DNA of 64,000 nucleotides, taken from positions 2,866-66,865 of the forward strand of contig JAZKBN010000052.1 in assembly GCA_040388605.1 (NCBI GenBank). The letters run 5' to 3'. Shown one piece after another: positions 5,407-56,467 of the stretch. The position numbers and the translations under genes were made by a program. This DNA is from Bacteroidota bacterium (GTDB taxonomy: Bacteria; Bacteroidota; Bacteroidia; Cytophagales; Flexibacteraceae). How positions within the stretch are numbered: position 1 is the stretch's first letter; each line of letters starts with the position of its first letter. The notes below the pieces were generated by a model. That model was given only the letters and a program-made list of their open reading frames with translations, was not told the origin of the DNA and did no database searches.

Positions 5407-5784
5407 ATGGACGGCTTTTTTCCCACAGCTGAAACAGTCCTGAAGGAAATGGTTCCGGAATTCGTTTCACGATATGACAATGACGATGGCTTTTACATGG
5501 TTCTTGGTGATTTTGCCTTCTTCGTCATAGAAAATTCAGGCAACCATGAATTAATGCAAAGGTGCTTTGGCTTTATTAATCTAGCATTGGAAAAAGGCGG
5601 CGAATATACTGAAGAAGCTATTGTTGTTCAGCTTTTTGAGCTTTTCTATGAAGATCAGGCTATTGTTGAATTAACAAGGCAGAGTTTAAATGCGCATGCC
5701 CTAAAAATTTACGATGACTTTTCGGATGCTTACACGCAAACAAATCTGAAGGCATTAGCGGAGAAAGCCGGTAAACAGCAATAA
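5407..5784 (+). CDS. Hypothetical cytoplasmic protein (125 aa)
   Basis: Clean ATG ORF that is acidic and looks helical (…EEAIVVQLFELFYEDQAIVELTR…). By eye its G+C is lower than that of its neighbours. No domain recognised with confidence. Confidence 0.6.
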   Translation: MDGFFPTAETVLKEMVPEFVSRYDNDDGFYMVLGDFAFFVIENSGNHELMQRCFGFINLALEKGGEYTEEAIVVQLFELFYEDQAIVELTRQSLNAHALKIYDDFSDAYTQTNLKALAEKAGKQQ

Positions 5785-11013: not shown

Positions 11014-11145
11014 TATAATACAAAATTAAGCAAAAAAAAGGACAGGAAAGAAGAGTTTATAGGGTAATCAGGCTGAAACAATAACCTTGATTTCGTTTTG
11101 GTAAATTGTTAACTTTACTTTTGAAACTATAAACAAATTAAACCA

Positions 11146-11346
11146 ATGGATAAATTGATAGTAGTCCACCCAGGCAACCAAAGCGAAATGGCTGAATTGA
11201 TTGCTTTCCTTGAGGACCGGAAAATGGTATTTGAGGAGGAGAAAGATATCTATTCGGAAGAGTTCAATGCAAAAATGAAACGGGTAGATGACGATATACT
11301 GGCAGGCAGAGGCGTAAAAATGAATCTTGATGATATATGGAAATAA
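11146..11346 (+). CDS. Putative antitoxin of the YoeB locus (66 aa)
   Basis: Small acidic ORF whose stop overlaps the toxin start (ATGGAAATAA arrangement). Low-GC islet. Confidence 0.65.
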   Translation: MDKLIVVHPGNQSEMAELIAFLEDRKMVFEEEKDIYSEEFNAKMKRVDDDILAGRGVKMNLDDIWK

Positions 11347-11600
11347 TCTTTTTTCCGGACGCGCTGAAAGATTTAGACTATTGGAAGCAAACAGGTCAAA
11401 CACAAATTCTATCTCGCATAAGGGAGCTTACCGAATCAATTATTGAGTCACCGTTTTCCGGAATAGGAAAACCTGAACCATTAAAGCATCAGCATAGCGG
11501 AAGATGGTCAAGGCGAATAAATTTAGAGCATAGGTATATTTACAGGGTTTCAGGTAATATTCTTGAAGTACTCTCATTACGCGGTCATTATGAAAAGTAA
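11337..11600 (+). CDS. yoeB: Txe/YoeB-family type II toxin (mRNA interferase)
   Basis: 87 aa with WSRRINLEHRYIYRV…LSLRGHYEK, the typical YoeB C-terminal catalytic region. Overlaps the upstream small gene. Confidence 0.85.
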   Translation: MEIIFFPDALKDLDYWKQTGQTQILSRIRELTESIIESPFSGIGKPEPLKHQHSGRWSRRINLEHRYIYRVSGNILEVLSLRGHYEK

Positions 11601-28424: not shown

Positions 28425-29144
28425 ATGATTCATTCTTTTAAAAACCTGATCGCTTTATGTGCAATTTTCTCCTTTGCAATGTTTTCATGTGCAAGGCATA
28501 ATTACCAGGCACATTTTCCGAATAAAGGCTACCATATAACTGCAGCAGTTAAGCCACCCAACACAAATTTGCAGCGAACCGATTTGAGCATAAAAAGAAG
28601 CAGCGCAAAAACTGCCTTCCTGCCGCAGCAGGCAACAGTTGTAAAAGCGATTGCTAACAAAACAAAGTCCAGGGCCGGGGCAATTACCGCAGCAATGCCG
28701 GATACCAAACCTGTAAAAGCCGATGGACAATTATCAGTATCGGTCATGAGGCAGGTAATGGCGAGAACGCAGGCCAGGCACGCCAGGGTAATAAAGATGG
28801 CAGCTTCGGCATTCAGGTACAATGCCAAGGAAGAGCCGCCTGTGCAAATGAATTTAAAAAGCCAGTTTACGGCACTGGCACTTGCTTTTCCTTTCCTTGC
28901 AGGTTTTTTCGGGATTCACAGGTTTTACCTTGGTTATACCGGTAACGGAATCCTGCGGCTTATAATAGGCATTATTGCCTTTGCCGCAATTATAGCTTTC
29001 GTTTCTACAGGAGATATAAGTGCAATTCCTACTATAATTGTTTATGGTGGCTTTGTATTCATTTGGGCGTTTATAGATTTTCTACGCATTATTGGCGGAG
29101 ATCTGAAACCCAAGAACGGCGGCGATTATATTTATGACCTGTAA
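28425..29144 (+). CDS. TM2-domain lipoprotein (paralog 1)
   Basis: Lipobox FAMFSC followed by ARHNYQAHFP. C-terminal TM2 motif FFGIHRFYLGYTGNGILRLI plus a second TM helix. Confidence 0.8.
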   Translation: MIHSFKNLIALCAIFSFAMFSCARHNYQAHFPNKGYHITAAVKPPNTNLQRTDLSIKRSSAKTAFLPQQATVVKAIANKTKSRAGAITAAMPDTKPVKADGQLSVSVMRQVMARTQARHARVIKMAASAFRYNAKEEPPVQMNLKSQFTALALAFPFLAGFFGIHRFYLGYTGNGILRLIIGIIAFAAIIAFVSTGDISAIPTIIVYGGFVFIWAFIDFLRIIGGDLKPKNGGDYIYDL

Positions 29145-29709: not shown

Positions 29710-30405
29710 ATGACCTTCCGGAATTTTAATGCCTGTAAATATTTACTGCTGATACTCAGTCTGCTTACAGGCTTTAGCGCCTGCCACAGGCATCATTACC
29801 AAGCTCATTTCCCCGGTAAAAAATATGGTTTGCATGGTGCCTCAGTCAGAACGCAACCTTCATCACCTGGAGCTTTATGCACAGAGCCTGTAATTGATCC
29901 CGGAATTGCTGTGAATGCAAAACCGGCAGGTTCGATTAGGCATTCTGACAGTAATAAGAAAAGCAGGTATGCAAACGTCGGCAAAGCCGGAATTGCAGCA
30001 GGTGCATTAACGGCATCAATAAAAGGAAGAAGCAGTAAAAGTGCTGAATCAGCCCTGAAAGGCCTACGAACTTCGGTTCTTACGGCTTCATTAAACAGTC
30101 TTAAATTGGCTTATTATAAGAAGGGCGATAAAAACAAAGGCCTGACCATATTAATTGCCTTTCCGTTTCTTACCGGTCTTTTAGGGGTTTATTACTTCTA
30201 CCTGGGTTATCATAAAAAAGGCTGGCTTTGGCTGGGCATTACAGCATTAACTTTCATTGTCGGCGTTTTAGCTGAAACAGGTGACCCTTTTGCAATTACC
30301 GCAGTGGTTTTGCTTGTCTTAACCATGATGATTCGTTGCTTAATTGATTTTGTTAAAATCCTGTCGAACAACTTAACCCCTGCACACGGAGATTATTACC
30401 ATTGA
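29710..30405 (+). CDS. TM2-domain lipoprotein (paralog 2)
   Basis: Lipobox LLTGFSAC followed by HRHHYQAHFP. TM2 motif LLGVYYFYLGYHKKGWLWLGI. Confidence 0.8.
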   Translation: MTFRNFNACKYLLLILSLLTGFSACHRHHYQAHFPGKKYGLHGASVRTQPSSPGALCTEPVIDPGIAVNAKPAGSIRHSDSNKKSRYANVGKAGIAAGALTASIKGRSSKSAESALKGLRTSVLTASLNSLKLAYYKKGDKNKGLTILIAFPFLTGLLGVYYFYLGYHKKGWLWLGITALTFIVGVLAETGDPFAITAVVLLVLTMMIRCLIDFVKILSNNLTPAHGDYYH

Positions 30406-37435: not shown

Positions 37436-38203
37436 ATGCGACCACTTTTTAGCCTGCTCTTTTTCCTGCTTATTCCGCTTTTTGGCTTGTATGCCCAGGA
37501 AGATGAAGATACCTGCCGCTTTGTTTTCGACTTTGGGTATGGAGACCAGCGAGAATGCAGCGACAGCCTGATTAAGAAAGGCATATTTACATACGGCAGC
37601 CTGATGCCTAAAAAAATGGCTTTTAATAAAACAGCAATAGACTATTTCCCTTATCAGAAAATCTATAGCTTGCCCGGTATTATAATAAAAGCAAAGTCTA
37701 ACCTTATTAGCCTTAAAAAGCCCGGAAATAAAAATTGGCAGACTGTTAACATAAGGAAACATTTCAATCTTGATTTAGATACTTTGTCCGGACCTATGGA
37801 TGAGGTAATTGTGTGGTCGGCATATAGTTTTAAAATGAACGGGCACCTGTATTATGTACTCTTTATTGGGCCCGATGCCCCGCCGCGTTATTACACCCCG
37901 TATAAACCAATCCTGATTGATATGTCGGGAGGCTTTATAAAAGTAGTGCCTATGCCGGGGTTCCAACATTCAACTTCACCGGGCTCTATGAATTGCGTAG
38001 TGCGGCAGGGGAAAGAGTGCTTAGTATATTACCCTTTAAATACACAGCTTAGTGAAGGACCTGACGATTTAAAAGTATATCTGTTCAGCTACATAAACGG
38101 CAAATTCATAAAAGACAGGACTAATTATCTGAAATTAGTATCTGATGCAGGTCCCTTCATTTACCGCATAGATTGGCGGGCGTCGAAATGGGATTTTAAA
38201 TAA
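37436..38203 (+). CDS. Hypothetical secreted protein (low-GC gene)
   Basis: Signal peptide MRPLFSLLFFLLIPLFGLYAQ. My hand count of ~100 nt gave about 34% G+C. No domain recognised. Confidence 0.6.
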   Translation: MRPLFSLLFFLLIPLFGLYAQEDEDTCRFVFDFGYGDQRECSDSLIKKGIFTYGSLMPKKMAFNKTAIDYFPYQKIYSLPGIIIKAKSNLISLKKPGNKNWQTVNIRKHFNLDLDTLSGPMDEVIVWSAYSFKMNGHLYYVLFIGPDAPPRYYTPYKPILIDMSGGFIKVVPMPGFQHSTSPGSMNCVVRQGKECLVYYPLNTQLSEGPDDLKVYLFSYINGKFIKDRTNYLKLVSDAGPFIYRIDWRASKWDFK

Positions 38204-45185: not shown

Positions 45186-45527
45186 CTATTTATCTTTCCC
45201 GCTTTGCAAAATGCTGTTTACCAGCGACAATATAAAGCTGAACATAAGCGCCCACCAAAAGCCGTCTACCTTAAATCCGCTGAAGAGGGCATCGGTGATG
45301 TAAACCATTAACACATTAAGCACAAGCCAGAAAAAACCGAGCGTAACAATGGTAATCGGCAGGGTTAGCAGGGTCAGAACGGGCCTTACAACAGCGTTCA
45401 GGAAGCCAAGCACTATGCTTACGCCAATGGCAGTTCCCAGGCCGCTTACATGCACACCCGGCAACAGCTTGGCAGAAAGGAATACGGCAACGCCGGAAAG
45501 AATGAGCTGTATAATGAAAGAGATCAT
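45186..45527 (-). CDS. Phage-holin-4_2/DUF360 (YvlD-like) small membrane protein
   Basis: 113 aa with 3-4 TM helices. Motifs LNAVVRPVLTLLTLPITIVTLGFF and FWWALMFSFILSLVNS are typical of this family. Confidence 0.75.
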   Translation of the reverse strand: MISFIIQLILSGVAVFLSAKLLPGVHVSGLGTAIGVSIVLGFLNAVVRPVLTLLTLPITIVTLGFFWLVLNVLMVYITDALFSGFKVDGFWWALMFSFILSLVNSILQSGKDK

Positions 45528-47972: not shown

Positions 47973-48077
47973 TAAGGGGGGTATGCGGCAGCGGATGAAC
48001 CAATCGGTAAATAATAACATCGCAATACCCAAAGGTACCCTGTTTAAAGCAAACTTTCCCTGAAACGGTTCAATAGA

Positions 48078-48452
48078 TTAAGCTGAGACGGGGCTACCTT
48101 TTTTAAATCGCGGAGCACCCAGCCTGCCCTTAGAAACTAAATCATCAATATGCTCAACAATGGCTTTATTAACATCACTTAAGCTCTTAAACCACATAAG
48201 GCTTTCTTGCGGAACTTTAAGAATATCATTTTGCGAATAAAAAACTAAGGTGTCTTTAAACGAAGGCAGGTAATAGGCCTGCACCAAAACTTGGGAAGCA
48301 TCGTTAAATTTGCTGATTATTAAATCACAAAACATATAATCATCCGCCTGGCCGGTAATTTTTTCGAACAGGTCATAAACTTCTTTATCAGTAACTCCGT
48401 AAGTTTTTACTTCAAGTTTGTATTTCCTAAGTGTTTTTGTAAGGGTGTCCAT
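48078..48452 (-). CDS. Hypothetical 124-aa cytoplasmic protein, partner of the EEP gene
   Basis: ATG ORF 15 nt downstream of the EEP gene on the same strand. AT-rich. No signal peptide or TM helix, and no recognisable domain. Confidence 0.6.
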   Translation of the reverse strand: MDTLTKTLRKYKLEVKTYGVTDKEVYDLFEKITGQADDYMFCDLIISKFNDASQVLVQAYYLPSFKDTLVFYSQNDILKVPQESLMWFKSLSDVNKAIVEHIDDLVSKGRLGAPRFKKGSPVSA

Positions 48453-48467
48453 TTAAGTACAATACGG

Positions 48468-49295
48468 TTAAATGTTAATTTCAAATACCAGCGGAAAATG
48501 AGCCTTCCTGTCGGGCCTGGCCTTTGTATGTACTTTACATACAGTCAGGGAGTCAAAGTTAAATTTAGGTATAATTTCTTCTGAAATCAATACCTGATCA
48601 ATGAAGGCCCAGCTGAATTCACCTATTTTGGGATTAGGGTATGAAAAAGTACCGTTTTTCATGCCCTCTTTCAATATTCCATCGCTAAACAAAGTCCATG
48701 TTGGATTATATAACTTCATATTTTCTGGCTCCCTGCGCAACTTACGATTTGGTACTATACGTTTTACAGGACCTTTTCTATTAAAAACATATGTCGCATT
48801 AAAGGAATAGGGATGTGTGAGAGCCTGTTCCCAGGGGTGTATATTGAAATCACCTGCTATTACCACAGGAAGGGCTTCCGATTTTTCTTTGCCTGCACCT
48901 CGGAAATGGTTATTAATTGAGCGTGCAGCCTGCTGAGCCATCACAAATCTGTTTAAATCATCGTAGTTAAGCCTGTCAACCAAATGAACTCCATAAAATA
49001 CAGCATCAATATCTTTTACTTTTAAATAAGCTGTCCTTTTGCTTAAGCTGTCGGGTACCTGCCCTACAGTACATTTTTCAGGCAGAATGCTCATGGAATG
49101 TATACAAAAGCAGACTTTTTTACCCGGCTTGTATATTTTATAAATATCCGGTAAAACGCTTAGTTTTATCTCACCGCCTTTGTCTTCAGAACTTTCATAC
49201 TCTGTGAAAATAATAATATCAGGCCGCTCGTGCTCAATTGTCTTTTGAATTTCTTCGGGCTCCCATTCAGCAATATTCCATGCAAGTATCTTCAT
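48468..49295 (-). CDS. Endonuclease/exonuclease/phosphatase (EEP) superfamily protein
   Basis: EEP motif series in the canonical order: MKILAWNI, IIIFTEYE, FYGVHL, VVIAGDFNIHPW, FIDQVLIS, and KAHFPLVFEI. No signal peptide. My hand count of ~100 nt gave about 39% G+C. Confidence 0.8.
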   Translation of the reverse strand: MKILAWNIAEWEPEEIQKTIEHERPDIIIFTEYESSEDKGGEIKLSVLPDIYKIYKPGKKVCFCIHSMSILPEKCTVGQVPDSLSKRTAYLKVKDIDAVFYGVHLVDRLNYDDLNRFVMAQQAARSINNHFRGAGKEKSEALPVVIAGDFNIHPWEQALTHPYSFNATYVFNRKGPVKRIVPNRKLRREPENMKLYNPTWTLFSDGILKEGMKNGTFSYPNPKIGEFSWAFIDQVLISEEIIPKFNFDSLTVCKVHTKARPDRKAHFPLVFEINI

Positions 49296-49516
49296 TGTAC
49301 ACAGGTAACCATGCAGAGGTTAATTTTATTTCGGAATAATACATATAATCTGCATATTATACAAAATCAGGCAAGGGCTATTCTGCCCGAACATCACCGA
49401 TAAAAACCATGAAGCATGGCCTTTAACCTTCTGCCAAAAATCATGAGATTACATAATTCAAACATTTACTACCTTAGCCCCTCACAAAAGCCACGGCTAA
49501 AACCGCTTTTTTATAC

Positions 49517-50251
49517 ATGGAAAACACAACCGGCAATCAGGCCGCTGTAGAAATAAAGGATATCCGGAAGAGCCTGGGGCGAATGCCTGTGCTGCACGGT
49601 GTATCATTAACGCTGCAAAAAGGACAGGTTTGGGGCCTTGTAGGTCCTAACGGATGCGGTAAAACCACCCTGTTCCGTACACTTTTGGGCTATTTACAGC
49701 CCGACAGCGGTACCACAACCGTACTTGGCCGCAGCAACCCTGATGATTATCGCAGGCATATCGGCATAGCACTGGATGATAACGGCTTCGACCCGCATCT
49801 TTCAGGGCGGGCTAACCTGGCAGCAGTTGCCACCATAGCCGGTGTTCCCGATCTCGAAGTAAGGGACTGGATAGATGCTTTCGATATGGGCCCTGCTATA
49901 AGACGTCAGCCTGCCACTTACAGTTATGGTATGCGCAAGCGCCTGGGCCTTATAGCCGCCTTTATGAGCAAGCGCCCCGTGCTCCTGCTCGATGAGCCGG
50001 CCAACGGGCTTGATGTGGCAGCACAAGCCATGCTCCGCCGGTATATTATAGACGAGGCATCGGCCGGAACCACCGTTTTTATGAGCAACCACAGCATGCA
50101 TGATGTTGAGCAAACCTGCACACACATTGCCATGATGCACAAGGGCGTAATACTTGCCCGGGGCACCCTTGAAGAAGTGGTGGAAGGATATACCAATTTG
50201 GAAGACAGTTTTATAAAACGCACACAGGGAGCCCGCAATGCCATACGCTGA
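49517..50251 (+). CDS. ABC transporter ATP-binding protein
   Basis: Walker A GPNGCGKTT, a degenerate signature YSYGMRKRL, Walker B LLLDEP, and an H-loop SNHSM. Confidence 0.9.
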   Translation: MENTTGNQAAVEIKDIRKSLGRMPVLHGVSLTLQKGQVWGLVGPNGCGKTTLFRTLLGYLQPDSGTTTVLGRSNPDDYRRHIGIALDDNGFDPHLSGRANLAAVATIAGVPDLEVRDWIDAFDMGPAIRRQPATYSYGMRKRLGLIAAFMSKRPVLLLDEPANGLDVAAQAMLRRYIIDEASAGTTVFMSNHSMHDVEQTCTHIAMMHKGVILARGTLEEVVEGYTNLEDSFIKRTQGARNAIR

Positions 50252-52422: not shown

Positions 52423-55074
52423 TCAGCTCCCCAGCTTTTCCAATGCTTTGGCAATGTCGTTTCCTTCACCGAGAACGGCCTTAAACAAATCACCTTTTTT
52501 CTTAAGGCGCGCGGGTATGTTTTTAATGGTGAAATCTGTGGGGAGCAGATCGGGCTTAAGCTCTTTCCAATCGAGGGGCGTACTTACGCAGGCTCCCGGC
52601 ACCGGCCTTACACTGTATGCCGAAGCCAATGTTTGACCCGACCTGTTTTGCAGGAAATCAACATAAATTAAGCCCTTACGCTCCTTCTTGCTTCGCGTTA
52701 CCGATGTGGTATCGGGTAATTGCTCATGCACCATGTTGGCAATTAATTCGGCAAGGGCGCCGGCCTGCTCAAAATCATACCGGGCAGCCAGGGGAATAAA
52801 AATATGTATGCCCGTGGCCCCGCTGGTTTTGGGATAGCACTTAATACCGGCTTTATCAAGCACTTCTTTTACAACCAGGGCGGTTTCAACCACCTGCGCA
52901 AAGGTATTGCCATCGTCGGGGTCAAGGTCTATAACTATGTAATCGGGGTTATCTGTATGGCCGAGGCTGCTGTTCCAGGGGTGCAGCTCTATGCAGCCGA
53001 GATTTACCATATAGAGCAGGCTTGCGGCATCGGGGCAAAGCAGGTAGCGCACATCCCGCTCAGCAGAATCGCTGTGGATTTTTACGGTTTGCAGCCATTC
53101 GGGCAACTTGCCCTCCATATTCTTTTGGAAAAAGCTTGAGCCCTTTATTCCGTTCGGGTGTCGGTGCAGGCTCATGGGCCTGTTTTTAAGGTAAGGCAGA
53201 ATATAGGGTGCCACGCTTAAATAGTACTCCGCCAAATCAAGCTTGGTATAACCTTCTTCAGGCCAGAAAACCTTATCGGGATGGGTAATCAGGCTTATGG
53301 GATTTTCAGGAGCATCTACAACTCCGCCGATAATGTCATCGGTCTCATGGGTTTCATGCCTGGCCTTTGTTTGGTGTATGCTCATGGTTTTTGCAGGTTC
53401 AGGGCTTTCGCCCGCTTCAGTATTATCGCTTTTCTGATGTGCGGCCTTGGTATCGGTAAGCTCGCGTTTAACGGCTTTTGCGGGTTTGTCTTCACGTAAG
53501 CCGTGGAAAATGGGCTGTCGCATAATGCCATCCTTGGTCCATTCAGCGAAAGACACCTCGCAGACAAGCTCGGGCTTTACCCATGTTACAGGGGCATTCA
53601 CATTTGGCTCCTTGGCTAAGGGACAGGTTTTGCGTTCAAGGGGCTGCAATTTATCATGCACCATCTCTAAGCTTTTGGTATTAAAGCCGCCTCCGCAATG
53701 ACCTATATAATTCAGGGTATCGCCATCATATAAGCCCAATATAAGGGCACCCAGGTGCTTGCGGCTATTGCGCGGTTCGGTATAGCCGGCAATAACGGCT
53801 TCCTGCCGAAGCTCTGTTTTCAGCTTTATCCAGTTGCGGCTGCGGGCCCCGCTTTCGTATGGGCTCAGGGCAAGCTTAGCCATTATACCTTCAAGCCCTG
53901 CTGCCCGTGCCGTATCGAAGAAATCTATGCCATGGCCTGTAACATGATCGGAGTAGCGTATATGATTTGATTTGTTCTTTTGGAGCAAGGCCTCTAACCT
54001 GCTCTTGCGTTCGGTAAGGGGCAGGCTGCGCAGGTCTTCGCCATTGAGCAGCAGCAAATCAAAAGCCGCGAAACACAAAGTGCCCTCATGGCTTGTGCTT
54101 TGGTTTTGCAGGTATTGGAATCGGCTTCGGCCTTCATGGTCGAGCGCCACCACCTCTCCATCGAGAACGGCGCTGATTTTTAAATCGGCGAGGGCTTTAA
54201 TTACCGATGGATATTTGCCGTTAAACAGCAACCCGTTGCGGGAAACCAAGTCGGCCGATTCGCCGTCGAGCAGGGCAATGGCGCGGTAGCCGTCCCATTT
54301 AATTTCGAAAATGAAATTATCGTCATCAAAGGGCTCATCGCCCAAAACGGCCAGCATAGGTTGCAGCATTTCAGGCAATGCCGATTTTGCAGCCTTTTCA
54401 GCAGGCTCAGGGTCGGCGGCTTTTTCGCTTTTTTCTTCGGCTGTCGGCTTTGCAGCTTTGCTGCGCGTTCCCCTTGCAGCCGCTTTGCCTTTTGTTGTCG
54501 CCACCTTCCCAAACGTGCTGTGCGCCGACATTTTTACCGGCTTTACCTGCTCAATATCGTACTCCTCATCCTGTGCGAATTTGTCTTTATGCTTCAACAG
54601 CAGCCAGTTTTTGTCGCCCCGGCCCTTCATTTTCACCAAGGCAAACTCGCCCTGCAAATGTGTGCCGTTGAGCACAAATTTCAGGCTTCCGTCTTGCAAT
54701 TCCTGTAACAGCAGGGCTTCCTCCTCTTTTTCCTTAACCTCGGCTAGGGGGGTATAGGTGCCTTCGTCCCAGATGTCTACTTCGCCGGCGCCGTAATTAC
54801 CTTCCGGAATGCTGCCGGCAAATTTGCGGTATTCAAAGGGATGGTCTTCAACTTCCACGGCCAGGCGCTTGTCGCCGGGGTGCATGCTCGGGCCTTTGGG
54901 TACGGCCCAGCTTTTTAGCACACCTTCCATTTCAAGCCGGAAATCATAATGCAAATGGCTGGCATCGTGGCGCTGAACTACGAAACGAAGCTTGCCCTTG
55001 CGCCTTGCTTCCTCGGGACCCGGCTCGGGCGTGTTGTTGAAATTGCGTTTCTCTTTATAAGCTTGCAGCGACAT
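52423..55074 (-). CDS. ligD: DNA ligase D (phosphoesterase - ATP-dependent ligase - polymerase/primase domains)
   Basis: N-terminal PE motif RFVVQRHDASHLHYDFRLE, a Lys/Ala/Glu-rich linker, ligase motif I FEIKWDGYRA, and a C-terminal LigD polymerase domain (…GATGIHIFIPL…). Length 883 aa. Confidence 0.95.
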   Translation of the reverse strand: MSLQAYKEKRNFNNTPEPGPEEARRKGKLRFVVQRHDASHLHYDFRLEMEGVLKSWAVPKGPSMHPGDKRLAVEVEDHPFEYRKFAGSIPEGNYGAGEVDIWDEGTYTPLAEVKEKEEEALLLQELQDGSLKFVLNGTHLQGEFALVKMKGRGDKNWLLLKHKDKFAQDEEYDIEQVKPVKMSAHSTFGKVATTKGKAAARGTRSKAAKPTAEEKSEKAADPEPAEKAAKSALPEMLQPMLAVLGDEPFDDDNFIFEIKWDGYRAIALLDGESADLVSRNGLLFNGKYPSVIKALADLKISAVLDGEVVALDHEGRSRFQYLQNQSTSHEGTLCFAAFDLLLLNGEDLRSLPLTERKSRLEALLQKNKSNHIRYSDHVTGHGIDFFDTARAAGLEGIMAKLALSPYESGARSRNWIKLKTELRQEAVIAGYTEPRNSRKHLGALILGLYDGDTLNYIGHCGGGFNTKSLEMVHDKLQPLERKTCPLAKEPNVNAPVTWVKPELVCEVSFAEWTKDGIMRQPIFHGLREDKPAKAVKRELTDTKAAHQKSDNTEAGESPEPAKTMSIHQTKARHETHETDDIIGGVVDAPENPISLITHPDKVFWPEEGYTKLDLAEYYLSVAPYILPYLKNRPMSLHRHPNGIKGSSFFQKNMEGKLPEWLQTVKIHSDSAERDVRYLLCPDAASLLYMVNLGCIELHPWNSSLGHTDNPDYIVIDLDPDDGNTFAQVVETALVVKEVLDKAGIKCYPKTSGATGIHIFIPLAARYDFEQAGALAELIANMVHEQLPDTTSVTRSKKERKGLIYVDFLQNRSGQTLASAYSVRPVPGACVSTPLDWKELKPDLLPTDFTIKNIPARLKKKGDLFKAVLGEGNDIAKALEKLGS

Positions 55075-55195
55075 AAGAAGGGAGGGGTGGGGATAATTGT
55101 GCCTCAGGAGCCGGCGGGGCTGGGGAACGATTTTTTTATTTGGTTTGGCGTTCTGCTTGGTTGGTGTTATGCTTCGTTTTGTTGGTTGGTAATCA

Positions 55196-55262
55196 GGTGG
55201 TTTGCAAAAAGGTGGTTTGCAAATAGGTGGTTTGCAAATAGGTGGTTTGCAAATAGGTGGTT
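55196..55262. repeat. Tandem 15-bp repeat, 4.5 copies
   Basis: ggtggtttgcaaaaa, then ggtggtttgcaaata three times, then ggtggtt. Each unit contains the palindrome TTTGCAAA. Degenerate GGTTGGT-type copies extend upstream to about 55141. Confidence 0.9.
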
Positions 55263-55305
55263 ATTCTCTCCCCGGAATGGGCGCTCAAACGCCGCGCAGG
55301 CTTTT

Positions 55306-55408
55306 GGCCTTTCACTTTTCGGGCGTGATCCTGCCGGGACGTCTGCTACGCAGACTCCGCCCCTTACGGGCGGCCCGACAGTTCCAAATGCCCGAAAAGT
55401 AAAAGGCC
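55306..55408. other. Multi-stem palindromic element (candidate structured RNA or extragenic palindrome) in the ku-ligD spacer
   Basis: The outer arms ggcctttcacttttcgggc / gcccgaaaagtaaaaggcc are complementary at 18 of 19 positions. The inner arms ctgccggg / cccgacag match at 7 of 8. Two hairpins lie inside: gtctgc-tac-gcagac and ccgccc-cttac-gggcgg. A run GGTGTTTTTC follows on the + strand only. Confidence 0.35.
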
Positions 55409-55468
55409 GGTGTTTTTCAACGACGTTCGCTTTCTGTACCTAATTTGGGGCAGGGGTACATTTATTAC

Positions 55469-56242
55469 CTACGACGCCTTCCGCTTTTCCTCCAAACTGG
55501 CTTTCAGCTGCGCCATCAGGTCTGTTGATTTGGCTGTGCTGATATGCTTTTCGGTGGCAACGGGTTTTTTGCCTTTCGCTTTGGCTTTTATGTGTTTCAG
55601 CAATTCCTCGGTATAGGTATCTTTAAACTGCTCTGGCTTGAATTTGCCGCTGTAGTTTTCTATCAGCTTAATGGCCATTTCAAGTTCCTGTCCCTTGGGC
55701 ATGGTGCGGCCCGGCAGCTCCAAATCGTTCGCCGAACGAATTTCATCGTTATAACGTATGCGGTTCAGGAGCAATACATTATCGAGGGCCTTCAGTATGG
55801 CAATATGTTCGCGTTCCCGCATTACATACTGCACAACGCCTACCTTGCCGCTTTTTCGCAGTGCTTCACGCAACAGGCCGTAGCTGCGCGCGCCGCCTTT
55901 ATCGGGTTCCAGGTAATAGGGCTGCTCGTAGTATATAGGGTCTATCTCGGTTTCATCCACAAACTCGAGTATTTCAAGCGTTTCGCTTTTTTTGGCAGAT
56001 GCTGCCTTAAAATCATCATCGCTGAGCACTATATACTTATCGTCGAGCTTATAGGCTTTAACAATATCGGCCCATTCAACCTCTTTGCCGGTTTTTTCGT
56101 TTACACGCAGGAAACGTATTTTTTCCTCGTCGCGCTTATCAAGCATATCAAGGTCTATGCGGCTTTCACCGGTGGCAGTGTACATTTTTACAGGCACATT
56201 CACCAGCCCGAAACCGATTGCCCCCTTCCAGATTGATTTCAT
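55469..56242 (-). CDS. ku: Ku protein (non-homologous end joining)
   Basis: MKSIWKGAIGFGLVNVPVKMYTAT is the canonical bacterial Ku N-terminus. Basic C-terminal tail. I prefer the ATG at 56242. Confidence 0.95.
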   Translation of the reverse strand: MKSIWKGAIGFGLVNVPVKMYTATGESRIDLDMLDKRDEEKIRFLRVNEKTGKEVEWADIVKAYKLDDKYIVLSDDDFKAASAKKSETLEILEFVDETEIDPIYYEQPYYLEPDKGGARSYGLLREALRKSGKVGVVQYVMREREHIAILKALDNVLLLNRIRYNDEIRSANDLELPGRTMPKGQELEMAIKLIENYSGKFKPEQFKDTYTEELLKHIKAKAKGKKPVATEKHISTAKSTDLMAQLKASLEEKRKAS

Positions 56243-56467
56243 TTTTTTGGCGTTTATATGCCGGTTAAGCTTCAAAAAATCTGCCGGCAGAAGCACGGCC
56301 TGCAAATGGGTAAGGGCTTGCGCAGGGGGCGGTATTATATTATTGCCGGTAAGGGCGGCAGGGTTGCTGCATTTGTTAAAGGCTCTGCATTGTTTTGTTT
56401 ACCAAATGCCTGTAAAAACATACATAAGGGCATAAGGCTTTGCAAAAATTCATAACTTGCCGATGTC

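Follow-up and report, generated by a model that had tools for sequence, protein, structure and literature searches.

A low-GC pair of genes for an EEP-fold protein and a small partner beside rsmA in a Bacteroidota genome, and its relation to an uncatalogued family of mobile two-gene modules

What kind of genetic unit is a pair of AT-rich genes that stands among housekeeping genes of different composition, and what might such a pair do for its carrier? We address this question for a stretch of 64,000 nucleotides from a Bacteroidota bacterium (contig JAZKBN010000052.1, assembly GCA_040388605.1), hereafter called the window, in which a 275-aa protein of the EEP (endonuclease/exonuclease/phosphatase) superfamily and a 124-aa small partner are encoded next to rsmA and mgtE. 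The evidence from sequence comparison supports reading the block at about 48.0–49.6 kb as a horizontally acquired two-gene operon, which would represent a rare deep branch of a family of mobile modules; at the head of the rsmA-mgtE operon, the window copy is the clear trace of a small horizontal transfer. As to its function, we lean slightly towards an EEP effector accompanied by a cognate small protein that would bind and control it, which would make the pair comparable to toxin-antitoxin, abortive-infection or exclusion modules. What would be new here is a two-gene module of nuclease plus partner with an unusual class of effector and a partner of no recognised kind.

A gene pair of foreign composition

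The two genes are co-directional on the minus strand and exactly 15 nt apart, as an earlier note based on the letters of the window had read them (coordinates in Table 1). Their whole-gene G+C contents are 38.5% (EEP) and 37.1% (partner) versus 53.0% for rsmA, 52.3% for mgtE and 53.5% for the ABC ATPase gene on the other side, and their G+C contents at third codon positions (GC3), 0.355 and 0.352, are the two lowest among the 51 long open reading frames (ORFs) of the window (mean 0.526, standard deviation 0.066), 2.6 standard deviations under the mean. The lowest value for any 1.4-kb segment in the entire 64 kb, 0.377, starts at position 48101. The composition break proposed in the earlier note is therefore confirmed by the profile, with the cassette as the lowest-GC block of the window, and the hand counts behind the proposal were accurate (38% in the final 100 nt of the EEP gene, 59% in the 3' 100 nt of rsmA). 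The position of the cassette between RsmA and MgtE on one side and a divergent ABC transporter ATPase on the other was likewise verified with Pfam. No direct or inverted repeats of note and no tRNA-like or att-like ends were found flanking it.

For comparison with related genomes we took the 80 rsmA loci nearest to that of the window (L001–L080) from 185,579 species representatives. mgtE is usually the next gene after rsmA in these loci, and tblastn searches with both cassette proteins gave no match beside rsmA in any of the 80 genomes. The nearest RsmA, from Larkinella, Pontibacter and other Cytophagales, is only 64% identical, so that this collection contains no close relative of the genome, which limits the argument from synteny.

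More informative is a second copy of the pair at a different site. The closest relative of the EEP protein (P0003, 36% identical) is encoded on a contig of 2.4 kb, where the next gene begins 4 nt after the stop codon and is cut after 22 codons; these read MKALSKFLKQHTLEVKTYGVSK, to be compared with MDTLTKTLRKYKLEVKTYGVTD of the window partner. Another protein from that 90% cluster (P0266) is encoded on L181, a contig of 10.9 kb, and here a complete partner gene of 127 aa starts 4 nt after the EEP gene. The L181 and window partners are 38% identical over 119 residues (E=6e-28), this being the only full-length homolog found, and the two EEP proteins are 33% identical (E=4e-60). The 124-aa protein had been called an orphan, and this still holds in the sense that no Pfam, NCBIfam, PADLOC or PHROGs family matches it, but it does have this one homolog. 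In L181 the pair is oriented divergently to sucA-sucB with uvrC nearby, a setting that differs from that of the window, and it forms a low-GC island of its own (37–44% versus 50–60% in the flanks); no non-coding similarity between the two cassettes was found. Since both genes have diverged to about 35% identity and yet are adjacent, intact and foreign in composition at unrelated sites, they form a unit that is mobile and under joint selection. Horizontal acquisition is thus supported by the foreign composition, by the absence of the pair beside rsmA in relatives and by the L181 copy at a different site, in agreement with the horizontally acquired, tightly paired module that had been suggested before. 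The branch itself is very rare, in that about 15 billion proteins include three of its EEP lineages, and a metagenome scan with an alignment of this sub-branch returned 76 loci of the larger family described below and no new member of the sub-branch. L081, for a time taken as a second independent relative, was rejected as a 100% identical sub-stretch of L181.

The EEP-fold protein and its small partner

The EEP protein contains the catalytic motifs of the superfamily at residues 6 (WN), 31 (TEYE), 102 (GVHL), 148 (GDFN), 232 (IDQ) and 265 (AHFPL). Its N7, E32, H104, D149, N151, D233 and H266 occupy invariant or near-invariant columns in two family alignments of 17 and 50 members; N7, G148, D149, N151 and P154 are invariant in both, and W6, E32, H104, D233 and H266 are invariant or kept in at least 90% of the sequences. 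The earlier claim of a motif-complete enzyme stands as far as all six motifs and their order are concerned, but one residue departs from it. The family ends in a near-invariant S-D-H-x-P, where the window protein has K-A-H-F-P and its L181 relative K-G-H-Y-P; in a column with at least 90% Asp, the residue before the catalytic His is Ala265 in the window and Gly in L181.

By profile searches the protein sits at the edge of what existing models recognise. PF03372 (Exo_endo_phos) scores 24.2 bits against a gathering score of 24.5 (E=3.3e-5, residues 6–178 only), and relatives of the protein score 19–29 bits with the same model; TIGR00633 and TIGR00195 give 20.7 bits (cut-off 99.05) and 15.1 bits (cut-off 182.55). 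PADLOC-DB 2.0.0 and PHROGs hold no significant match, sequence searches of the PDB with either cassette protein gave nothing meaningful, and a word-indexed search of 5.8 billion clusters with each of the two returned only the query itself. An AlphaFold2 model built on a 50-sequence alignment reached a predicted TM-score of 0.81 and a mean pLDDT of 76.8. Foldseek comparison of this model with the PDB gave 230 matches at E<=1e-3, and the 50 matches listed are all EEP enzymes, the best being Tdp2, nocturnin, APE1 and ExoIII at E of about 1e-10, TM-scores of 0.55–0.6 and 11–18% identity, with Bacillus subtilis ExoA also among those listed. Matches in BFVD are equally generic and mostly annotated as EEP proteins. 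Being generic for EEP enzymes, the structural matches in both databases give no pointer to the substrate. Judged by its modelled fold, a four-layer alpha/beta sandwich, and by its catalytic residues, the window protein belongs to the EEP superfamily and is not an Xth, and its likeliest activity is that of a nuclease with DNA or RNA as substrate.

The choice of the start codon deserves a comment. In the public annotation of this metagenome-assembled genome (MAG) the gene (locus tag V4543_14590) is called as 208 aa with the start at M68, which would remove the catalytic W6-N7 and E32. The family is aligned from residue 1, N7 and E32 are catalytic and bind metal, and the 275-aa call is present in another source (P0268); on this combined evidence translation begins at the ATG at 49295.

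The partner is less tractable. The only PADLOC match, JetA at E=0.0046 and 13.8 bits, was judged to be noise, and an AlphaFold2 model from the single sequence (pLDDT 45) was unusable. The protein is near neutral (pI 6.6, net charge -0.4) with a tail of charge +3, and it has neither an acidic tail nor one like that of SSB, the protein binding single-stranded DNA. No hydrophobic segment occurs in either cassette protein (maximum Kyte-Doolittle 19-mer 0.92 for the EEP protein and 0.84 for the partner), which agrees with the earlier statement that both lack signal peptides and transmembrane helices. A PDB sequence search with a profile of window-type partners gave nothing meaningful. A resemblance to the outlier partner of locus L160 was noticed by BLASTP (E=2e-5 in the pairwise comparison and 8e-4 when run against the set) and failed profile testing, the hhalign probability being 4.5% and the L181 partner matching that of L160 at E=0.048.

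A widespread family of EEP and small-partner operons

The pair in the window belongs to a much larger set of relatives. An exhaustive phmmer search with the window EEP protein recovered 377 representative clusters at E<=1e-3, mostly stand-alone proteins of 260–290 aa, many of which align from residue 1. The clusters are tiny and scattered, and some sources automatically name the relatives "exonuclease III". For the broader EEP family we gathered 76 metagenome loci and 12 IMG/VR viral contigs carrying EEP proteins 20–33% identical to that of the window; scans of viral contigs with the window EEP or the window partner singly gave no match. The gene immediately downstream of the EEP gene almost always encodes a protein of 100–190 aa, and 56 of 60 unique sequences of such proteins form one family, here called the mainstream partner. 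When loci with at least 400 nt of room downstream of the EEP gene were counted, the hidden Markov model (HMM) of this partner matched the frame directly after EEP in 73 of 76 and nowhere else. The median gap between the genes is 1 nt, with an overlap in 30 of 64 pairs. Two of the exceptions, L095 and L160, have a different small overlapping ORF, and the third, L136, is a decayed copy in which DNA identity of about 70% to close relatives ends at ...MLDQVIT* and unrelated sequence takes the place of the last approximately 45 EEP residues, including the catalytic His, and of the entire partner gene. Loci that at first seemed to have no downstream ORF proved to be misses in the calling of start codons, and among the family loci examined none holds an intact EEP gene without an adjacent small co-directional gene. 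The linkage that the earlier note had asked about between homologs of the small protein and EEP genes is thus seen both in L181 and family-wide.

EEP clades track the classes of partner in a rough neighbor-joining tree, where the window and L181 proteins occupy a long deep branch among divergent lineages that also have divergent partners. The window partner shows no detectable homology to the mainstream partner (E=1.2 with its HMM; hhalign probability 0.08% with the single sequence and 0.41% with a two-sequence profile). Most mainstream partners are acidic (their median pI is 5.0), and in one clade they bear long acidic tails, as would be expected, by analogy, of nuclease inhibitors that mimic nucleic acid. 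The C-terminal tip of bacterial SSB serves as a docking point for many genome-maintenance proteins. Its sequence, DDDIPF (PMC5872125), recurs, exactly or in close variants, at the ends of five mainstream partners from four EEP clades (...DDDIPF, ...DDIPF, ...EDDIPF, ...YDDLPF and ...ADLPF), and about 20 other mainstream partners have long acidic tails without the PF ending. Mainstream EEP proteins and partners have no match in PADLOC 2.0, the family is not described in Pfam, and no relative of the partner profile turned up among the sequences of the PDB; the Klebsiella-type EEP protein and partner match phrog_24714 and phrog_10179, both of "unknown function". No description of a module of stand-alone EEP protein and small partner was found in the searchable literature.

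Where the family resides is consistent with a mobile life. On chromosomes the two genes stand alone as an insert in unrelated surroundings, as in Clostridium sp. P21 (JABBNI010000047.1, L172), where a mainstream pair sits between hemB (ALAD) and hemL in an otherwise contiguous cluster for heme and cobalamin biosynthesis. Other chromosomal pairs follow murA, stand beside an IS200-type transposase or lie 5 kb from IS66 and DruA, and one (L175) is directly followed by an IS3 transposase. In L175 the pair and the IS3-family transposase (HTH_Tnp_1 and rve) are flanked by an 882-aa Phosphoesterase (PF04185) and a 168-aa ORF with a faint match to the same family, and the block may have been inserted into, or beside, a duplicated phosphoesterase gene. 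On a ColRNAI plasmid of Klebsiella pneumoniae (NZ_CP041089.1, 3541 bp, L177), which occurs in many isolates and in 17 PLSDB records, the pair (WP_032419557, annotated as "endonuclease", and WP_032419556) is the sole cargo besides Rop and replication functions. It is also the only annotated content of Escherichia coli pEC904 (NZ_AY589570.1, 3066 bp, L176), which in the literature searched figures just as a known plasmid of 3 kb (PMC8190604); blastn found no copy of the plasmid-type pair in the complete E. coli genomes of RefSeq. Furthermore, the pair adjoins an integrase on a 500-kb plasmid of Bacillus cereus, lies just upstream of the terminase genes in a phage-plasmid of Clostridium estertheticum and directly follows the integrase in Acinetobacter phage vB_AbaSI_1 (PP359530.1, L180). 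In the latter the EEP gene seems to be split, the annotated 173-aa coding sequence being followed just downstream by a continuing tblastn match to the C-terminal half and then by a 151-aa hypothetical gene, and is possibly a frameshifted copy.

A scan of 142 neighbouring ORFs from about 22 family loci, read as raw counts, found many phage and mobile families (portal, terminase, Mu F, RecT, antirepressor, integrase, resolvase), and few of the neighbours match defence models. The enrichment near defence genes that the earlier note had asked about is therefore less clear than the association with mobile elements, and what is consistently seen is mobility with an accessory or selfish status rather than location in defence islands. 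The module is thus a widespread, uncatalogued two-gene family carried by phages, tiny plasmids and chromosomes.

Table 1. Coordinates of the cassette, of other features of the window and of family loci named in the text
Feature	Location	Strand	Basis or remarks
EEP-fold gene, 275 aa	window 48468–49295	-	ORF and family alignments; predicted Mg2+-dependent phosphodiesterase/nuclease
Partner gene, 124 aa	window 48078–48452	-	ORF; pI 6.6, basic C-terminal tail, no known domain
Spacer, EEP stop codon to partner start codon, 15 nt (operon junction)	window 48453–48467	-	Sequence
AT-rich intergenic region, 221 nt, 37% GC, EEP start to divergent ABC-ATPase gene	window 49296–49516		Composition; presumed promoter region of the cassette
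Low-GC block (about 38%), taken as the acquired segment	window 48001–49560, boundaries approximate		60-nt GC steps and profiles
LigD and Ku genes	window 52423–56305	-	
Phage_holin_4_2 gene	window 45186–45527	-	
Lower-GC ORF	window 5407–5784	+	
Lower-GC ORF	window 11068–11403	-	
Lower-GC ORF	window 28425–29144	+	
Lower-GC ORF	window 29710–30405	+	
Lower-GC ORF	window 37436–38203	+	
EEP gene of the closest pair	L181 9391–10341		
Mainstream partner	L177 2241–2678		(D/E)(D/E)(I/L)PF-type end
Mainstream partner	L176 2207–2527		(D/E)(D/E)(I/L)PF-type end
Mainstream partner	L093 6393–6881		(D/E)(D/E)(I/L)PF-type end
Mainstream partner	L159 3613–4053		(D/E)(D/E)(I/L)PF-type end
Mainstream partner	L083 8830–9261		(D/E)(D/E)(I/L)PF-type end
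Mainstream pair between hemB and hemL	L172 10001–11250		
Pair with IS3-family transposase and flanks	L175 6989–13250		
Pair of Acinetobacter phage vB_AbaSI_1	L180 4495–5824		
Decayed copy	L136 3918–4916		

Several other features of the window were seen in passing. A complete pair of genes for non-homologous end joining, with LigD and Ku adjoining, lies 3 kb from the cassette, and its LigD is a protein of 883 aa with phosphoesterase, ligase and primase-polymerase domains. Directly downstream of mgtE is a gene for a 113-aa Phage_holin_4_2 protein with four transmembrane segments (E=6e-32); its composition is native, and a similar gene occurs near rsmA in 2 of the 80 related loci. Five further ORFs have lowered GC and GC3 (GC3 of 0.37–0.45 versus an average of 0.53), none as extreme as the cassette, and these may be further small acquired genes.

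Possible roles of the module and comparison with known systems

The reading to which we give a little more than even credence, partly by analogy, is that of an acquired operon of effector and controller. The EEP protein would be the effector; the partner, produced at a fixed ratio from the shared transcript, would bind it and restrain or gate it, and the pair would benefit the mobile element or its host in genetic conflicts. This is suggested by the architecture of the operon, the obligatory linkage of its genes, their co-divergence and the lack of intact enzymes without partners, as well as by sole-cargo carriage on minimal plasmids and the acidic nature of most partners. We infer the roles of effector and modulator from genomic context and analogy, and the same applies to the expectations that come with them, namely binding of the partner, inhibition, a nucleic-acid substrate and a toxicity or phage phenotype.

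A number of observations weigh against this reading. The loss of the Asp before the catalytic His could mean that the activity of the window enzyme is reduced or altered. Its partner, being non-acidic and unrelated to the mainstream partner, can receive the inference from the family only by architectural analogy, and Pfam and NCBIfam detect in it no helix-turn-helix (HTH), ribbon-helix-helix (RHH) or AbrB domain. The neighbours of the cassette in the window are housekeeping genes without defence genes among them, and across the family the defence models matched by few of the 142 neighbours were SIR2-HerA, SspH, DRT, PDC-S09 and mad8. Promoter and terminator scans of the cassette gave consensus-level matches only, at chance frequency; since there is no evident terminator ahead of rsmA, a shared transcript of the cassette with rsmA-mgtE may be all there is to the arrangement. 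Lastly, the window-type branch is known from just two full pairs and one partial EEP lineage.

A more specific version of the effector-and-controller reading, which we put forward tentatively and consider rather doubtful, is that EEP and small-partner operons form a new and widespread class of mobile conflict systems, of the abortive-infection, exclusion or plasmid-addiction kind, in which a stand-alone EEP nuclease would be restrained by a co-translated inhibitor that mimics nucleic acid or the SSB tip, the nuclease being set free when an invader perturbs transactions of SSB and single-stranded DNA (ssDNA). The window branch would then have its inhibitor swapped for, or diverged into, an unrelated protein and its terminal D-H dyad changed, and a non-acidic inhibitor combined with such a dyad would, if real, imply a different trigger or mode of control in this branch.

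Other explanations differ in what the pair would be for. As the main alternative, it might serve the mobile element directly, with the EEP protein processing nucleic-acid ends, adducts or signalling nucleotides in repair, anti-restriction or anti-defence, and with the partner as a targeting or adaptor subunit that docks, for example, onto host proteins that bind the SSB tip. The end and lesion processors Tdp2 and AP endonucleases are among the best structural matches, the SSB-tip-like ends of five mainstream partners in four EEP clades suggest docking to the SSB interactome, and the pair occupies phage moron slots and plasmids. We nevertheless regard this as unlikely, given that solo chromosomal inserts without other mobile genes (window, L181, L172) are hard to explain in this way, that the Foldseek ranking among EEP proteins is non-specific (TM-score of about 0.6), that the window partner has no SSB-like tip and that a role as sole cargo on 3-kb plasmids would be more typical of addiction or exclusion. 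The window cassette could instead be a passenger, inert or in decay and of no present function, that was inserted long ago and whose EEP protein has been inactivated by the change from SD to KA before the catalytic His. A near-invariant Asp has indeed been substituted, the branch is extremely rare, and decayed copies exist in the family, namely the L136 remnant and the apparently frameshifted EEP gene in the Acinetobacter phage. Both window ORFs are nevertheless intact, and the pair has remained full length and adjacent with its other catalytic residues kept at about 35% identity to L181, which implies long-term purifying selection on both genes; moreover, the loss of the Asp is common to the window and L181 and so is an old, tolerated feature of the branch. 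Decay is accordingly an improbable account.

A secreted or contact-delivered interbacterial toxin with its immunity protein, of the polymorphic-toxin or bacteriocin type, would fit the order of effector and then immunity gene and the carriage on small ColE1-type plasmids, both of which resemble colicin operons, and EEP-fold toxins such as CdtB exist. The EEP protein is however a bare catalytic domain of 260–300 aa; at its N-terminus it lacks any domain for delivery, receptor binding or translocation, it has no signal peptide or hydrophobic segment, and no lysis or secretion genes are present on the 3-kb plasmids or beside the window cassette, so that we see very little room for this explanation. 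Still less can be said for a native housekeeping DNA-repair nuclease of the Xth/ExoIII type with an incidental small ORF. It would account for the weak similarity to xth models across the N-terminal 166 residues and for relatives automatically named as exonuclease III, but the TIGR00633 and TIGR00195 scores lie far below their cut-offs, the composition is foreign, there is no counterpart beside rsmA in the 80 relatives, and the clusters are tiny and scattered with the small ORF conserved along with EEP. The earlier note had named membership of a housekeeping Xth clade at the syntenic site as the finding that would speak against an acquired module; equivalog scores, composition, synteny and pairing effectively refute it, and none of the sequence-based checks named in the note spoke against the acquired module.

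If the effector-and-controller role of the pair holds, bacterial conflict systems would gain a further class of enzyme. Two-gene modules for defence or addiction that have a stand-alone EEP phosphodiesterase as their effector have, to our knowledge, not been reported. With the pair as sole cargo, the Klebsiella plasmids of 3.5 kb and the E. coli plasmid of 3.1 kb are a ready experimental system, and the SSB-tip-like tails of some partners suggest a checkable link between the module and the ssDNA machinery of host or phage. There is also a consequence for annotation, since such pairs are at present labelled "hypothetical", "endonuclease" or "exonuclease III", and the EEP gene is mis-started in this MAG.

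How does the pair compare with systems already known? Anti-phage systems in PADLOC-DB 2.0, including the PDC and HEC candidates, resemble the EEP family in being gene pairs with a predicted nuclease effector carried by prophages and plasmids; they differ in that no model matches either protein, which agrees with the earlier impression that no established system is built in this way, and in that the association of the EEP family with defence islands is weak. ExoIII/Xth, APE1 and Tdp2 have the EEP fold and the metal-binding and catalytic residues in common with the window protein, whose family, in contrast to them, is mobile, patchy, non-syntenic and always accompanied by a small partner gene. 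Closest is the unnamed mainstream operon of EEP and acidic partner. Its partners carry the motifs W..P..IL.EQ...YP...SLL.QS and are acidic, whereas the window partner is not homologous to them, is near neutral and lacks an acidic or SSB-like tail, and its EEP proteins keep the S-D before the catalytic His, the window protein lying on its long deep branch. The enzymes are nevertheless of the same family (phmmer E of 1e-13 to 1e-6) and have in common the motifs WN, HL, GDFNxxP(F/W)(E/D), (F/Y)NP.W and DQVL, and in both kinds of operon EEP comes first, followed on the same strand by a protein of 100–190 aa, with the same lifestyle of solo inserts and mobile elements. The last comparison is with type II toxin-antitoxin systems and nuclease-inhibitor pairs such as barnase-barstar and the DNase colicins with their Im proteins. 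Catalogued toxins and antitoxins have no sequence relationship and no demonstrated structural one to the EEP pair. In the EEP pair the enzyme gene comes first, and the DNA-binding domain of the HTH or RHH type that is typical of type II antitoxins is lacking in the partner. In organisation the likeness is considerable: like these pairs, the EEP family is built as two-gene operons with short or overlapping junctions, is spread patchily as plasmid, prophage and solo chromosomal copies, and has partners that co-diverge with the enzyme.

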